From Escherichia coli (GTDB lineage Bacteria > Pseudomonadota > Gammaproteobacteria > Enterobacterales > Enterobacteriaceae): 64,000 bases of DNA. The stretch lies in the NCBI RefSeq assembly GCF_016903815.1, contig NZ_CP069973.1, one strand, 5' to 3'. Both the position numbers and the translations under genes were made by a program. Shown here one piece after another: positions 29,428 to 37,993 of this stretch (its first letter is position 1; every line of letters starts with the position of its first letter). The notes beneath the pieces are model-generated. The model ran no database searches. It saw only the letters and a program-made list of their open reading frames with translations, and was not told the origin of the DNA.

Positions 29428-32400
29428 ATGAGCGGAAAACCGGCGGCGCGTCAGGGCGACATGACGCAGTATGGCGGTAGCATTGTCCAGGGTTCAGCCG
29501 GGGTGCGCATCGGTGCCCCCACCGGCGTGGCCTGTTCGGTGTGCCCCGGCGGGGTGACGTCCGGCCATCCGGTCAATCCGCTGCTCGGCGCGAAGGTCCT
29601 TCCCGGCGAAACCGACCTTGCCCTGCCCGGCCCGCTGCCGTTCATCCTCTCCCGCACCTACAGCAGTTACCGGACAAAAACGCCCGCGCCGGTGGGGAAC
29701 CTCGGCCCCGGCTGGAAAATGCCTGCGGATATCCGCTTACAGCTGCGCGATAACACACTGATACTCAGTGATAACGGCGGCAGAAGCCTGTATTTTGAGC
29801 ACCTGTTTCCCGGTGAGGACGGTTACAGCCGCAGCGAGTCACTCTGGCTGGTGCGCGGCGGCGTGGCGAAACTGGATGAAGGTCACCGGCTGGCCGCACT
29901 CTGGCAGGCGCTGCCGGAAGAGCTTCGCCTGAGTCCGCATCGTTATCTGGCGACGAACAGTCCGCAGGGGCCGTGGTGGGTACTCGGCTGGTGTGAGCGG
30001 GTGCCGGAGGCGGATGAGGTGCTGCCTGCGCCGCTGCCGCCGTACCGGGTACTGACCGGGCTGGTGGACCGCTTCGGGCGCACACAGACGTTCCACCGTG
30101 AGGCTGGCGGCGAAATCACCGGCGTGACGGATGGTGCCGGGCGTCACTTCCGGCTGGTACTGACCACGCAGGCGCAGCGGGCAGAAGAAGCCCGGCAGCA
30201 GGCCTCTTCCGGCGGGACGGAACCGTCCGCTTTTCCTGATACCCTGCCGGGTTACACCGAATATGGCCGGGACAACGGCATCCGTCTGTCTGCCGTGTGG
30301 CTGACGCACGACCCGGAATACCCGGAGAATTTACCTGCCGCGCCGCTGGTGCGCTATGGCTGGACGCCACGCGGCGAACTGGCGGCGGTGTATGACCGCA
30401 GCAATACACAGGTGCGCAGCTTTACTTACGATGATAAATACCGGGGCCGGATGGTGGCGCACCGTCACACGGGCCGGCCGGAAATCCGTTACCGTTACGA
30501 CAGCGACGGGCGGGTGACAGAACAGCTAAACCCGGCAGGCTTAAGCTACACGTATCAGTATGAGAAAGACCGCATCACCATCACCGACAGTATGGACCGC
30601 CGTGAAGTGCTGCACACGCAGGGCGAAGGCGGGCTGAAGCGGGTGGTGAAAAAGGAACACGCGGACGGCAGCGTCACGCAGAGTCAGTTTGATGCGGTGG
30701 GCAGGCTTAAGGCACAGACGGATGCCGCAGGCCGGACGACTGAGTACAGCCCGGATGTGGTGACGGGACTCATCACGCGCATCACCACACCGGATGGCAG
30801 GGCATCGGCATTTTACTATAACCACCACAACCAGTTAACGTCAGCCACCGGGCCTGACGGGCTGGAAATACGCCGGGAATATGATGAATCCGGCCGTCTG
30901 ATTCAGGAAACCGCACACAACGGCGATATCACCCGCTACCGTTATGATAATCCACACAGTGACTTACCCTGCGCAACGGAAGATGCCACCGGCAGCCGGA
31001 AAACCATGACATGGAGCCGTTACGGTCAGTTGCTGACCGTCACTGACTGTTCCGGTTATGTAACCCGTTATGACCATGACCGTTTTGGTCAGGTGACGGC
31101 GGTGCACCGCGAGGAAGGGCTGAGTCAGTACCGCGCATACGACAGCCGTGGACAGTTAATTGCGGTGAAAGACACGCAGGGCCATGAAACGCGGTATGAA
31201 TACAACGCCGCCGGTGACCTGACCGCCGTCATTGCCCCGGACGGCAGCAGAAACGGGACACAGTACGATGCGTGGGGAAAGGCCATCCGTACCACACAGG
31301 GCGGTCTGACGCGCAGTATGGAATACGATGCTGCCGGACGGGTCATCCGCCTGACCAGTGAAAACGGCAGCCACACCACCTTCCGTTACGATGTACTCGA
31401 CCGGCTGATACAGGAAACCGGCTTTGACGGCCGCACACAGCGTTATCACCACGACCTGACCGGCAAACTTATCCGCAGCGAGGATGAGGGGCTGGTCACC
31501 CACTGGCACTATGACGAAGCAGACCGCATCACACAGCGAACGGTGAATGGTGAAACCGCAGAACAGTGGCGGTACGACGAACGCGGCTGGCTGACACAAA
31601 TCAGCCATCTCAGCGAAGGCCACCGGGTGACGGTGCATTACGGGTATGATGAGAAAGGCCGCCTGACCGGTGAGCGCCAGACGGTGCATCACCCGCAGAC
31701 GGAAGCACTGCTCTGGCAGCATGAAACCAGACACGCTTACAACGCGCAGGGACTGGCGAACCGCTGTATACCGGACAGCCTGCCCGCCGTGGAATGGCTG
31801 ACTTACGGCAGCGGCTGGCTGGCAGGCATGAAACTCGGCGACACACCGCTGGTGGATTTCACCCGCGACCGCCTGCACCGGGAAACGCTGCGCAGCTTCG
31901 GCCGTTATGAACTCACCACCGCTTATACCTCTGCCGGGCAGTTACAGAGCCAGCACCTGAACAGCCTGCAGTATGACCGCGATTACACCTGGAACGACAA
32001 CGGCGAACTCATCCGCATCAGCAGCCCGCGACAGACCCGGAGTTACAGCTACAGCGACTCCGGCAGGCTGACCGGCGTCCACACCACCACCTCAAATCTG
32101 GATATCCGCATCCCGTATGCCACGGACCCGGCAGGCAACCGCCTGCCCGACCCGGAGCTGCACCCGGACATCACCCTCAGCATGTGGCCGGATAACCGTA
32201 TCGCCCGTGACGCGCACTATCTTTACCGGTATGACCGTCACGGCAGACTGACGGAGAAAACCGACCTCATCCCGGAAGGGGTTATCCGCACGGATGATGA
32301 GCGGACTCACCGGTACCATTACGACAGTCAGCACCGGCTGGTGCACTACACGCGGACACAATATGCAGAGCCGCTGGTCGAAAGTCGCTATCTTTACGAC

Positions 32401-33615
32401 CCGCTGGGCCGCAGGGTGGCAAAACGGGTGTGGCGGCGTGAACGGGACCTGACGGGCTGGATGTCGCTGTCACGGAAACCGGAAGTGACCTGGTACGGCT
32501 GGGACGGCGACCGGCTGACCACGATACAGAACGACAGAACCCGCATCCAGACGGTTTATCAGCCGGGGAGCTTCACGCCACTCATCAGGGTCGAAACCGC
32601 CACCGGTGAGCTGGCGAAAACGCAGCGCCGCAGCCTGGCGGATGCGCTTCAGCAGTCCGGCGGCGAAGACGGTGGCAGTGTGGTGTTCCCGCCGGTGCTG
32701 GTGCAGATGCTCGACCGGCTGGAAAGTGAAACCCTGGCTGACCGGGTGAGTGAGGAAAGCCGCCGCTGGCTGGCATCGTGCGGCCTGACGGTGGAGCAGA
32801 TGCAAAACCAGATGGACCCGGTGTACACGCCGGCGCGAAAAATCCACCTGTACCACTGCGACCATCGCGGCCTGCCGCTGGCGCTTGTCAGCACGGAAGG
32901 GGCAACAGAATGGTACGCAGAATACGATGAATGGGGTAACCAGCTGAGTGAGGATAACCCGCACCAGCTGCAGCAGCTCATCCGCCTGCCGGGTCAGCAG
33001 TATGATGAGGAGTCAGGCCTGTATTACAACCGCCACCGCTATTATGACCCGCTGCAGGGGCGGTATATCACTCAGGATCCGATTGGACTGAAGGGGGGAT
33101 GGAATTTTTATCAGTATCCGTTAAATCCGGTTCAGTATATAGATTCAATGGGACTGGCATCTAAATATGGACACTTAAATAATGGCGGATATGGAGCGAG
33201 ACCCAACAAACCGCCTACGCCCGATCCAAGTAAGTTGCCAGACATAGCGAAACAATTAAGACTGCCATATCCTATTGACCAGGCCAGTAGTGCGCCTAAT
33301 GTTTTCAAAACATTCTTCAGAGCATTAAGTCCTTACGATTACACACTGTATTGCAGGAAGTGGGTAAAACCCAATCTGACTTGTACGCCGCAGGATGATC
33401 CCCAGTATCCAGGGATGGAGACAAAGACAGCAAGTGATTACCTGCCACAGACAACTTGGCCAACAACTCAATTACCACCAGGATATACTTGTGCAGAACC
33501 CTATTTATTCCCAGACATTAATAAACCCGATGGGCCAGCAACAGCAGGGATAGATGATTTGGGTGAAATTTTAGCTAAAATGAAACAGAGAACATCGAGA
33601 GGAATAAGAAAATGA
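29428..33615 (+). CDS. rhsB: Rhs family polymorphic toxin (PAAR-like N-terminus, YD-repeat core, variable C-terminal toxin tip)
   Basis: 1395-aa track ORF; YD repeats; conserved core end ...[16 protein letters not shown] (DPIGL at 33076-33090); locus position after nikR. Confidence 0.93.
32701..33143 (+). repeat. Rhs core 3' segment, copy 1 of about 443-bp direct repeat
   Basis: Near-identical to 37551..37993 (same reading frame, a few substitutions). Confidence 0.85.
33091..33615 (+). other. variable C-terminal toxin domain of RhsB (after DPxGL motif), function unknown
   Basis: Sequence after DPIGL is AT-richer and Pro/Tyr/Cys-rich with no recognisable catalytic motif. Confidence 0.7.
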
Positions 33616-34181
33616 AAAGAGCTTTGTTCTTTTTGCTGATGATATTCGTTAGTTTTGGTGTTATAGCTAATTGCGAAACACAAGCTAAAGATCAAGATTG
33701 CTTTACCATTTTCACTAAGGGTACTATTTTTTCCGCGTTTCCTGTCTTAAATAATAAAACCATGTGGAGATGGTATCAGAATGAGGACATAGGTGAGTAT
33801 TATTGGCAAACAGAACTTGGTATATGTAAAAATAACAAATTCACACCAAGCGGGGCGAGACTCTTAATTCGCGTCGGATCACTACGCCTTAATGAAAATC
33901 ATGCAACCAAAGGAACGTTGCAGGAGTTGCTAAATACAGCAGAAAAAACGGCGTTTCTCGGCGATCGGTTTAGAAGTTATATAAGAGCGGGTATCTATCA
34001 AAAAAAGAGCAGTGATCCAGCTCAGTTGTTGGCAGTCCTTGATAATTCAATCATGGTTAAATATTTTAAAGATGAGAAGCCAACTTATGCTCGAATGACA
34101 GCACATCTCCCGAACAAAGATGAGTCTTACGAATGTTTAACAAAAGTACAGCATGAACTGCTTCGTAGTGAAGAAAAATAA
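33612..34181 (+). CDS. putative cognate immunity protein of RhsB toxin tip; has N-terminal signal peptide
   Basis: ATG overlaps rhsB stop (ATGA at 33612-33615); 189 aa; [20 protein letters not shown] signal-like N-terminus. Confidence 0.65.
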
Positions 34182-34349: not shown

Positions 34350-34697
34350 ATGAGAAACTCACTAATATTACTTATTATGATATTGTTTACAATATCACAC
34401 TCAGTATTTGGAAAAGAAAATTCAGTGGAAATTTTAGTAAATAGTCGTGAAATGGCTTTGGAATTATCATATGTTTATATTAAATATATATACGGGAAAG
34501 AAAAAGCAGAATTTCAGAAACCATATAGTATTACAGATGACAATAATTGTTGGAAAATCGAGGGAAAACAACCGAAGACGTTAGGAGGAAATTTTACAAT
34601 ACTAATAGCGAAAAAAGATGGGCAAGCGTTGGATGTAATACACAAAATAATCCACTGTTCAAACGATTCAAATATTTTACCAAGGTGTGTTTCATAA
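34350..34697 (+). CDS. small secreted NTF2-like putative orphan immunity protein
   Basis: 115-aa track ORF with signal peptide; paralogous to ORF 36296..36562. Confidence 0.6.
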   Translation: MRNSLILLIMILFTISHSVFGKENSVEILVNSREMALELSYVYIKYIYGKEKAEFQKPYSITDDNNCWKIEGKQPKTLGGNFTILIAKKDGQALDVIHKIIHCSNDSNILPRCVS

Positions 34698-35279
34698 CTA
34701 TTTTGTGTACAATATGACTCTACATATCGACGAAAAAACCACTTGATTTGACAGGAACACATTCAAAAAAATTTCTTTTTCATTTCAGGAGCGATTTTCA
34801 TCTGTTACTTGAAGTATCTGTGAGATTAAGTGACTCCCCCTAACGTCGTACTAAATAGTAATTACTGGCCATACCGGGAGCAGTATTCGGCGCTTCCCAC
34901 ATGCAGCAGAATAACCGCATCAGCGAAGATGTATTGTATTTTTACTATCACAATGTGTACGGACGGTTTATGGAAAAGAATGAACATTAGATACGCGATG
35001 CGGCGGCAGATTACACGGTTATCACTACGATAGCCAATACTGGCTGGTGCATTACCGCCGTGAACAATAGGACGCCGTACTGCTGGAAATTTCTTACCTT
35101 TATGACTCCCCGCACCGCCGTATCGGGAAACGGGAAGCAGTCAAGATGAGGCTGATATAATGTGTGGAATGCCTGAGTATTTTTAGAATAGAGGGTAATA
35201 TGTTTGATAGAATATATCTTGGTGATCGACCAATAAAAAAATTGAATTTGATTTATGGAGCAAACAAATTAGAATTCAG

Positions 35280-35564
35280 GTGAATTTAATCTCAAGGATA
35301 GCCTATGGTACAACAGAATGGAATTTTTATAATAATGAAGACTTAGAAAATGGTTATTTAGTATTTACCGATGTTACTTTCTTTAATATAATACCTAATG
35401 GCTCCATTCCAGATGATTATATAGTTTCAATAATAACAGATAAAGTCAATGTTGAATGTTTTGAATCAACTATAGTTGCTGTTGGTCAAATTCGAAACAC
35501 AAATGTTGGTGACATTGATAATATTGGTGAATGTCAAATTCTCATCAGGTATAAAGACCGCTAG
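35280..35564 (+). CDS. hypothetical small protein, possibly 3' part of a split gene
   Basis: 94-aa track ORF starting at GTG that overlaps the TGA of a 27-codon ORF (35200..35283) in a GTGA junction. Confidence 0.35.
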   Translation: MNLISRIAYGTTEWNFYNNEDLENGYLVFTDVTFFNIIPNGSIPDDYIVSIITDKVNVECFESTIVAVGQIRNTNVGDIDNIGECQILIRYKDR

Positions 35565-35848
35565 ATTGAGAATAAACTCAAAGAAAAAATAATTGAATAA
35601 CCATGTCAGTTATAGACATTTTAGATGGAACGAACCAGAGAAGGTCATGCCTCCGAGCTGGGTTATGTGGACACGGAGCTTTAGCGTAGTGAACTCAACG
35701 AAGCAAGCCGGAAACCTGCCAGCCCTTATCAGCACGTAAGGGACAACAGCGTAGTACGCAGAATAATCCTACCCACGTAGTATGGACACAGGCCTAAGCG
35801 AGGTTCTGGTTTTCAAATTTTTCAGGAGTTAGATGATTGGAGGAACAG

Positions 35849-36214
35849 ATGATAAGAATCGCATTTTTAATAACCAATAAATTTCTTGAGATAGATAGTA
35901 CCACTCTTGCTGGATATGATTTTAGCGGGATGAATCTACATCGTGCCACCCTCAATGGTTATTGTCTTGATGGGGCGAAATTTGAAAAAACTCATTTAAG
36001 AAATGTAATGATTCAACATACATCAACTAGAAATGCTGTCTTTCACAATGCGGCTCTGATGAATGCTATTCTGAATAACTCAGATTTCACTGGAAGTGAT
36101 TGTAGTAATTCAAGGTCAATAGGTGAAAATTTTAAAGCAATAGATAATCATGGGAAAGATATAATAAATGGAAAAGGATTGTCTAATGTTTGCAAAATAC
36201 ATGACAACGTATAA
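35849..36214 (+). CDS. pentapeptide-repeat protein (possible immunity/target-protection protein)
   Basis: Track ORF 35837..36214; ATG at 35849 preceded by ggagg; tandem 5-residue periodicity ATLNG YCLDG AKFEK THLRN ... AALMN AILNN SDFTG. Confidence 0.7.
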   Translation: MIRIAFLITNKFLEIDSTTLAGYDFSGMNLHRATLNGYCLDGAKFEKTHLRNVMIQHTSTRNAVFHNAALMNAILNNSDFTGSDCSNSRSIGENFKAIDNHGKDIINGKGLSNVCKIHDNV

Positions 36215-36295
36215 GAAAATATTATTCAGAACCTATGTGATTGTATCTTTGTTTTTACATACAACACATGGGCGCAGTGTAATAATATTATTATA

Positions 36296-36562
36296 ATGCG
36301 CAAGTATGAATGTGAGGGGAAATACACCGTTAGAAATTTGGTAAAAAATAAAGCTATAGCATTGGAATTAGCTGAGATGTATGTTAAAAATCGTTATGGG
36401 CATGATGCCGCAGAAGAAGAAAAACCATACAAAATCATGGAATTACCAACAAGTTGGATTGTTGAAGGCACCATTGAATCAGACCAAATTGCTGGTAGGG
36501 TTTTTATTATAGAAATAGGCAAAAATGACGGGAGAATTCTAAATTTTGGCCACGGAAAATAA
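36296..36562 (+). CDS. NTF2-like putative orphan immunity protein, paralog of 34350..34697 lacking signal peptide
   Basis: 88-aa track ORF; aligns by eye with the 34350 ORF (ALELAEMYVKNRYG.../KPY.I...W..EG...DG..L). Confidence 0.55.
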   Translation: MRKYECEGKYTVRNLVKNKAIALELAEMYVKNRYGHDAAEEEKPYKIMELPTSWIVEGTIESDQIAGRVFIIEIGKNDGRILNFGHGK

Positions 36563-36666
36563 GTATGTAAGGATAAACAAACATCGTGTGTGCTGATGGC
36601 AGAGTAGGTGGAGGACTCCAGACAGTCAAACGATAGAAAAAGATAGTCTTTATGGAGGTTCCTGCA

Positions 36667-37509
36667 ATGTCAAATACATACCAGAAAAGAAAGGCAAGTA
36701 AAGAGTATGGTTTATATAATCAATGTAAGAAACTAAATGATGATGAATTATTTCGCTTACTTGATGATCACAATTCCTTGAAAAGGATTTCATCTGCCAG
36801 AGTATTACAGTTAAGAGGTGGTCAAGACGCTGTTAGATTGGCAATTGAGTTCTGCTCTGATAAAAATTATATCCGTAGAGATATCGGAGCATTTATACTC
36901 GGGCAAATAAAAATTTGCAAAAAATGCAAAGATAATGTGTTTAATATTTTGAACAATATGGCATTGAATGATAAGAGCGCTTGCGTTCGAGCTACGGCAA
37001 TCGAGTCAACGGCTCAGCGATGCAAGAAAAACCCAATTTATTCACCTAAAATAGTAGAACAATCTCAAATTACTGCTTTTGATAAATCGACTAATGTCAG
37101 ACGTGCTACAGCATTTGCTATTTCTGTTATCAATGATAAAGCAACAATTCCACTATTGATTAATCTGTTAAAAGATCCAAATGGAGATGTCAGAAACTGG
37201 GCCGCATTTGCAATAAATATCAATAAATATGATAATAGTGATATTAGGGATTGTTTTGTGGAGATGCTTCAGGATAAAAATGAGGAAGTCCGTATTGAAG
37301 CAATAATCGGACTTTCCTACAGAAAAGATAAAAGGGTTTTATCTGTTTTATGCGATGAGTTAAAAAAAAATACTGTTTATGATGATATCATTGAAGCTGC
37401 GGGTGAATTAGGTGATAAAACGCTACTTCCTGTTTTAGATACTATGTTGTACAAGTTTGATGACAATGAAATTATAACTTCCGCTATTGATAAGCTGAAG
37501 CGTTCATAG
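36667..37509 (+). CDS. HEAT-repeat (PBS-lyase type) protein, YibA-like putative Rhs immunity protein
   Basis: Track ORF 36652..37509; ATG at 36667 has ggagg RBS and gives 280 aa; repeated D.N..VR..AA.AL motifs. Confidence 0.8.
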   Translation: MSNTYQKRKASKEYGLYNQCKKLNDDELFRLLDDHNSLKRISSARVLQLRGGQDAVRLAIEFCSDKNYIRRDIGAFILGQIKICKKCKDNVFNILNNMALNDKSACVRATAIESTAQRCKKNPIYSPKIVEQSQITAFDKSTNVRRATAFAISVINDKATIPLLINLLKDPNGDVRNWAAFAININKYDNSDIRDCFVEMLQDKNEEVRIEAIIGLSYRKDKRVLSVLCDELKKNTVYDDIIEAAGELGDKTLLPVLDTMLYKFDDNEIITSAIDKLKRS

Positions 37510-37550
37510 CGTGAGTTGCCTATGCACAGTGGGGGATTCCCGCCGGCACG

Positions 37551-37993
37551 GTGCAGATGCTCGACCGGCTGGAAAGTGAAATCCTGGCTGACCGGGTGAG
37601 TGAGGAAAGCCGCCGCTGGCTGGCATCGTGCGGCCTGACGGTGAAGCAGATGCAAAACCAGATGGACCCGGTGTACACGCCGGCGCGAAAAATCCACCTG
37701 TACCACTGCGACCATCGCGGCCTGCCGCTGGTGCTTATCAGCACGGAAGGGGCAACAGAATGGTGCGCAGAATACGATGAATGGGGCAACCTGCTGAATG
37801 AAGAGAACCCGCAACAGCTGCAGCAACTCATCCGCCTGCCGGGTCAGCAGTATGATGAGGAGTCCGGCCTGTATTACAACCGCCACCGCTATTATGATCC
37901 GCTGCAGGGGAGGTATATCACTCAGGATTCGATTGGGCTGAAGGGGGGATGGAATTTTTATGAGTATCCGTTGAATCCGGTTCAGTATATAGA
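37551..37993 (+). repeat. Rhs core 3' segment, copy 2 of direct repeat
   Basis: Matches 32701..33143; DPIGL motif altered to DSIGL in this copy. Confidence 0.85.

Follow-up and report, generated by a model that had tools for sequence, protein, structure and literature searches.

A decaying orphan Rhs tip module and its core-end repeat downstream of rhsB in Escherichia coli

Organization of the rhsB locus

The window, by which we mean the whole 64,000-nucleotide stretch of Escherichia coli DNA analyzed here (contig NZ_CP069973.1, RefSeq assembly GCF_016903815.1), carries a full-length rhs gene at the rhsB position: a RefSeq copy of 100% identity places nikABCDE-nikR on one side of the locus and yhhJ-rbbA on the other. 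The main gene and its immunity gene are followed by stranded immunity genes and toxin fragments, then by a second copy of the end of the Rhs core with a tip and an immunity gene of its own, and lastly by an insertion sequence. The features are the following.

29428-33615, plus strand: full-length main rhs gene, 1395 aa, between nikR and yhhJ (ORF list; RefSeq 'RHS element core protein' WP_048237751.1)
32701-33143, plus strand: repeat copy 1, formed by the final ~148 codons of the main Rhs core (32676-33143 with its indel-bearing left edge; comparison and blastn)
33076-33090, plus strand: first aspartyl-protease motif of the main gene, DPIGL (translation)
33142-33156, plus strand: boundary motif of the main gene, DSMGL, with predicted autocleavage after Leu (translation)
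33157-33615, plus strand: main toxin tip, ybfO type (96.5% nucleotide identity to K-12 ybfO-ybfC)
33612-34181, plus strand: immunity gene cognate to the main tip, encoding a YbfC-like protein of 189 aa whose N terminus resembles a signal sequence (ORF; ybfC in homologous loci)
34350-37509, plus strand: interval between the repeat copies with stranded immunity genes and toxin fragments, comprising the next six features
34350-34697, plus strand: NTF2 immunity gene
35280-35564, plus strand: DUF6258
35722-35765, plus strand: third core remnant, 44 bp, 84% identical to 32881-32924, now with stop codons
35837-36214, plus strand: pentapeptide-repeat ORF
36296-36562, plus strand: yhhH-like NTF2 immunity gene
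36652-37509, plus strand: yibA
37527-37993, plus strand: repeat copy 2, the orphan core fragment, of which 37551-37993 is the gap-free part
37926-37940, plus strand: first aspartyl-protease motif of the orphan, DSIGL, with C to T at 37929 (translation)
37992-38006, plus strand: boundary motif of the orphan, DPFGL, within a canonical PxxxxDPxGL (37977-38006)
38007-38516, plus strand: orphan toxin tip, with a predicted clan-CD (caspase/CPD-like) cysteine protease fold, broken by an in-frame TGA
38214-38216, plus strand: premature stop TGA, four codons ahead of the predicted catalytic Cys (TGG, Trp, in intact copies)
38530-39008, plus strand: Sel1-repeat lipoprotein immunity gene of the orphan tip, frameshifted (alignment to the intact ST2747 and GF43 genes)
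39181-39948, plus strand: complete IS1, 768 bp, with a 9-bp target duplication CCATGTGTT, just downstream of the orphan module

The array between the two core copies is a tip 'graveyard' and fits the anatomy of C-terminal displacement. Its pentapeptide-repeat ORF ends in the last ~25 codons of the K-12 RhsB-type DUF4329 toxin (NFKAIDNHGK..NVC.H.N), and a weaker core match of 42 bp is seen at 35014-35055. On the far side of the orphan module, the IS1 sits inside an IS630 remnant and is absent from strains ST2747 and GF43; an ISAs1 (H-repeat) remnant lies past it, at 40115-40549.

More than 20 independent complete genomes carry the whole 8.6-kb locus at 100% identity, and 234 cover at least 80% of it. 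Since the identical locus recurs in this way, an assembly or duplication artefact was rejected.

The end of the Rhs core is present twice

The segments 32701-33143 and 37551-37993 lie on the same strand, 4,850 bp apart. A base-by-base comparison finds 424 of 443 positions identical (95.7%; 19 mismatches, no gaps), a similarity far beyond chance, and the Rhs reading frame runs through both copies ((32701-29428) mod 3 = 0). The same pair was recovered independently by a repeat search and by blastn, which extends it leftward to 32676-33143 versus 37527-37993 (468 columns, 94.7% identity, one 1-base indel). A preliminary description of this DNA had called the pair near-identical and in the same frame, proposed a pairwise alignment as the check, and identified the repeated segment as the end of the Rhs core, present again ahead of an orphan tip; the analysis bears out its account of the repeat.

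At the right-hand edge, nucleotide homology ends at the second base of the Asp codon of the boundary motif, and past this motif the orphan and main tips are unalignable. In each copy GC content drops from about 0.6 to about 0.4 where the repeat ends; for copy 1 the values are about 0.60-0.68, followed by about 0.44 in the main tip.

The orphan core fragment starts 18 bp past the yibA stop codon. It matches only positions 1111-1261 of the 1261 of the NCBIfam model RHS_core, that is, the last 151, and has neither the N-terminal region nor the greater part of the YD-repeat core. PGAP annotates 37539-38009 as a partial RHS pseudogene missing both termini, under a note that reads 'missing N-terminus'. 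The 3' end of yibA, the 18-bp spacer and the start of the fragment are base-for-base the same as in K-12 rhsA-yibA-yibJ.

Toxin tips and their immunity genes

Neither the main tip nor the orphan tip has a match in Pfam or NCBIfam. Tips of the ybfO type, to which the main tip belongs, occur attached or orphan in 3,507 of 5,426 complete E. coli genomes. The orphan tip is of the yibJ type (38007-38516; K-12 yibJ, L008:6222-6923), a family with a confident predicted fold of the clan-CD cysteine protease kind, an invariant His...Cys pair in that order, and the Pseudomonas aeruginosa T6SS effector Tce1 (DUF4347) as best structural match. The predicted dyad residues are His34 and Cys74. From this structural modelling we predict that tips of this family are toxins resembling clan-CD cysteine proteases. 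The lipoprotein-type signal sequence of the Sel1-repeat immunity protein hints at a periplasmic site of action. The Sel1 gene follows the tip in every context examined, and is annotated 'sel1 repeat family protein' in ST2747 and GF43.

Both genes of the orphan cassette are disrupted in this strain. Besides the TGA in the tip, the immunity gene has lost one base in a poly-C run near 38602-38608, which is C8 here, C9 in ST2747 and interrupted in GF43. The TGA could in principle be read through at a low level, and the poly-C run could slip back into frame, reversibly. The core fragment has also diverged: a comparison with seven other copies shows seven changes private to it, of which four are non-synonymous (E>K, A>V, H>Q and P>S) and three synonymous, a sample too small to prove relaxed selection.

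A Pro-to-Ser change in the first of two autoprotease motifs

The C-terminal autoprotease of Rhs proteins has two DPxGL-type motifs, in the arrangement DPXGX18DPXG (PMC10684867). The Asp residues of both motifs are catalytic and cleavage follows the second, after the Leu, Trp or Phe of PxxxxDPxG[LWF] (PMC8636562, PMC8765631, PMC10684867). In Pseudomonas protegens RhsA the dyad is D1324/D1346, 22 residues apart (PMC8765631), and its counterpart in Tse5 is D1141/D1164 (PMC8636562, PMC8765631, PMC10684867).

An Asp pair with the same 22-residue spacing as in RhsA is found at the core end in both copies of the E. coli repeat. The two copies differ in which Asp is followed by Pro: after the first Asp, Pro is present in the main gene (DPIGL) and absent in the orphan (DSIGL), whereas after the second it is present in the orphan (DPFGL) and replaced by Ser in the main gene (DSMGL). 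At the first motif, the main gene has CCG (33079-33081) and the orphan TCG (37929-37931). The NCBIfam models RHS_core and TIGR03696 both stop at the Leu of the orphan DPFGL, crystallised Rhs core constructs in the PDB end at the equivalent DPLGL, and nucleotide homology ends there too; since all three agree with the literature, the core/toxin boundary is the second motif. The Pro/Ser difference noted in the preliminary description is therefore real but misplaced, as that description had located it in the boundary motif: the Ser belongs to the first motif, beside the first catalytic Asp and 22 residues upstream of the boundary, the orphan boundary is canonical, and it is the main gene that has Ser there. 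Calls of a 'DPxGL motif', by eye or automated, must tell these two autoprotease motifs apart.

The two positions are not equally conserved. The first motif reads DP in 144 of 149 cluster representatives (97%); the five exceptions are all short proteins, in a set where only 4 of the 150 listed exceed 1000 aa, so that it has no power to show whether first-motif deviations are confined to orphan fragments; a listing of homologous proteins, which took in only those of at most 400 aa, is equally unsuited to that question. Among 150 representatives the second motif reads DP in 126, DS in 14 (14 of 143, about 10%), DA in two, DF in one and DV in one. The DSMGL of the main gene is not a lesion but is intrinsic to the ybfO-type tip, K-12 ybfO carrying the same boundary motif. 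Judged from sequence, the Pro of PxxxxDPxGL is not obligatory, since Ser takes its place in a very common tip type (~3,500 of the 5,426 genomes).

The Ser of the orphan represents a derived polymorphism, specific to this lineage and linked to a nonsense mutation, in a fragment that is silent, and it probably arose by neutral drift. It is plausible that such a change would impair autoproteolytic release of a tip, because the Asp beside it is essential (PMC8765631, PMC10684867) and 97% of representatives have the Pro, but the matter is moot here. An orphan of the same tip family in Salmonella enterica has an independent Pro-to-Ser change at the same first-motif position (P0122 and P0255, versus P0252, P0253 and P0256). 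The position is polymorphic in that species, DSIGL being found in Choleraesuis and Paratyphi C cluster members and DPIGL in others; the members of cluster P0122 are Choleraesuis, Paratyphi C, Hvittingfoss and Indiana. We read this parallel as recurrent drift through a CCN>TCN transition, selection being formally possible.

Distribution of the alleles among complete genomes

Of the 5,426 complete E. coli genomes, exactly 235 contain an exact 49-mer spanning DSIGL, in a single copy each, and exactly 235 likewise contain a single exact 51-mer spanning the TGA. All 60 sampled DSIGL copies lie under a partial RHS annotation; sampled TGA copies share that annotation, fall outside any annotated feature or, in one genome, lie under 'DUF8616'.

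The orphan tip was found in 257 genomes in all. In 23 of them it is attached to a full-length Rhs, and the three inspected (ETEC4071, KE55 and NRZ14408) have it at the rhsC locus, intact. In GF43 an intact orphan tip (by translation) lies directly behind rhsB-yibA, and N3 gives the same two-piece match, in the shorter main-yibA-orphan arrangement. Intact E. coli copies, main or orphan, all have DPIG[L/Q] and TGG. One tip can thus be 'main' in one genome and 'orphan' in another, as is also seen from the rhsB main tip of the present strain, which is the ybfO orphan at rhsC in K-12.

Recombination between the two copies

In Salmonella LT2, main and orphan rhs sequences recombine over 522 bp of 95% identity, and the exchange follows a duplication, which preserves the main immunity gene (PMC3967940). 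The E. coli copies share a comparable length, several hundred bp, at about the same identity, and by analogy the ~450-bp repeat is a plausible legitimate substrate for RecA-dependent recombination.

We searched the 5,426 genomes for recombinants with a chimeric query, in which 600 bp of main-specific core were joined to the repeat and tip of the orphan. No rhsB main::orphan fusion was present in these complete genomes, in which rare within-culture recombinants would be invisible. The best full-length match (98.1%) is at rhsC, and the query retrieved only rhsC-attached copies together with the shorter arrangements of GF43 and N3.

The distribution of mismatches constrains where crossovers could fall. 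Runs of perfect identity of at least 25 bp measure 31, 61, 87, 27, 38 and 32 bp and all lie upstream of the Ser codon, the 61- and 87-bp runs at 32733-32793 and 32795-32881, the longest identical run downstream of it being 24 bp; practically every crossover would therefore carry the Ser. The recombinant product would be a 1312-aa Rhs protein with a 69-residue tip stump, and a recombinant of the deletion type would lose the resident immunity gene (33612-34181). A swap would not yield a working toxin, whatever the Pro/Ser change does, because the orphan tip is pseudogenized and the immunity gene belonging to it is out of frame. The proposal of the preliminary description, that the repeat could serve to swap toxin tips, holds as regards the repeat itself, whose size and identity match those of the Salmonella LT2 system (PMC3967940), and both tips are seen in the other context elsewhere; against it stand the interrupted tip, the frameshifted immunity gene and the lack of an rhsB recombinant among the 5,426 genomes.

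A separate indication of recombination in the core-end region comes from an E. coli K-12 RhsB-type fragment (P0001, 371 aa), in which ~90 core-end residues are duplicated in tandem and in frame (...YYDPLQG twice).

A probable relic of serial C-terminal displacement

We interpret the second copy as the core fragment of a decayed dissociated (orphan) Rhs tip module, a relic of serial C-terminal displacement, and give this reading a probability of about 0.85. Under the displacement model proposed for arrays of dissociated tips (PMC2935791), new cassettes of core end, tip and immunity gene would be recombined onto the main gene, and older tips would be pushed downstream, each retaining a piece of core. 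Recombination between the two repeat copies could take the form of a loop-out of the 4,850 bp or, as in Salmonella, of an unequal exchange after duplication. The anatomy, the lesions, the allele distribution and the lack of fixed recombinants are direct observations; from them we infer the displacement history, a capacity of the repeat to recombine and a neutral origin of the Pro-to-Ser change. The orphan cassette would now be silent DNA in decay: besides the lesions in its two genes and the IS1 just downstream, its core fragment has gathered lineage-specific substitutions, Pro to Ser among them. With a stop in the toxin and a frameshift in the antidote gene, the module looks like an ordinary decaying relic rather than a ready spare warhead. 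The interpretation offered by the preliminary description is consequently supported in part only, its motif having been mis-assigned and the cassette being dead.

Four other readings were weighed. The core fragment might be kept for an internal promoter and start site that would express the orphan toxin/immunity pair within the cell, in the manner of a toxin-antitoxin system. In Salmonella, internal promoters have been described at the end of the rhs core, ahead of both main and orphan toxins, and they are said to exist in E. coli too (PMC7043789), and here a GTG at 37551 opens a 221-codon ORF. Yet the toxin and immunity genes are both disrupted in this strain, promoter-like sites are not enriched in 36500-39200 (7 found versus 8.5 +/- 3.0 expected), none of them lies just upstream of the ORF, and a scan of that interval for promoters and terminators gave nothing convincing just upstream of the orphan ORF. 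We consider this explanation improbable.

Even less probable is a ready silent cassette, which recombination at the repeat would install as a functional new toxin, with a Pro-to-Ser change at the boundary modulating release. A repeat of matching size and identity does exactly this in Salmonella (PMC3967940), the tip looks functional and is main-attached in other strains, and the first-motif Pro, conserved in 144 of 149 representatives, adjoins a catalytic Asp (PMC8765631). However, the TGA precedes the predicted catalytic Cys, the Sel1 immunity gene is out of frame, the Ser is outside the boundary motif, no recombinant was found in 5,426 genomes, and a deletion-type swap would remove the resident immunity gene as well. 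Given the stop codon, such a cassette is largely refuted in this strain.

A bolder reading, to which we attach very little credence, would have a recurrently selected Pro-to-Ser change tune or disable autoproteolysis and, with the slippage-prone poly-C, make the cassette a reversible, phase-variable reserve instead of a dead relic. It draws on the change having arisen independently in E. coli and in orphans, from Salmonella Choleraesuis/Paratyphi C, that belong to the same clan-CD protease tip family.

Least credible of all is selection of Pro to Ser as a safety catch that disables autoproteolysis of the silent cassette, or as a co-adaptation to a protease-type tip: the same independent and polymorphic Salmonella change speaks for it, whereas every intact copy of the tip, main or orphan, in E. 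coli and Salmonella has Pro, CCN>TCN is a common transition, the E. coli allele is linked to a nonsense mutation, and selection cannot act on an unexpressed fragment.

Comparison with known systems

The decayed orphan module is an element of a kind already known from K-12 yibJ and ybfO, from Salmonella STM0292 and from the arrays of Jackson et al., and it is annotated in RefSeq. Its significance beyond annotation is small: the locus is a textbook Rhs tip 'graveyard', which shows toxin loci storing and losing cassettes.

The closest counterpart of the orphan is K-12 rhsA-yibA-yibJ, which has the same junction between yibA and core, the same fragment end (PxxxxDPxGL) and the same tip family (... 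VWLFSC). In K-12, yibJ is an orphan Rhs tip, known for a long time, that is annotated as a pseudogene and lies at rhsA, whereas the orphan described here lies at rhsB, behind several extra stranded immunity genes. K-12 yibJ retains DPIGL, against DSIGL in the present copy, and its truncation falls elsewhere. The main tip and its immunity gene find their counterpart in K-12 rhsC-ybfB-ybfO-ybfC, being of the ybfO/ybfC type at 96.5% nucleotide identity, DSMGL included, but the K-12 tip is a dissociated copy at rhsC and the present one is attached to a full-length rhsB gene.

The STM0291/STM0292 pair of Salmonella Typhimurium LT2 has a similar core-end repeat, of 522 bp at 95% identity compared with 443-468 bp at ~95% here. 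In LT2 the orphan has an intact toxin and an intact immunity gene, and there is selection for recombinants; in the present strain the two genes are broken, so that neither the intact orphan toxin nor the intact orphan immunity gene of LT2-type switching is found. As a rule dissociated tips are silent, and many have degenerated through stops or frameshifts; at E. coli clade I loci they are generally missing downstream (PMC2935791). Contrary to this general absence, the present rhsB locus has a long tip array. In its build this array resembles those reported by Jackson et al. in 2009, for example Serratia SMA1610-1616, in which direct high-GC core fragments are each followed by a low-GC non-homologous tip, as they are here.
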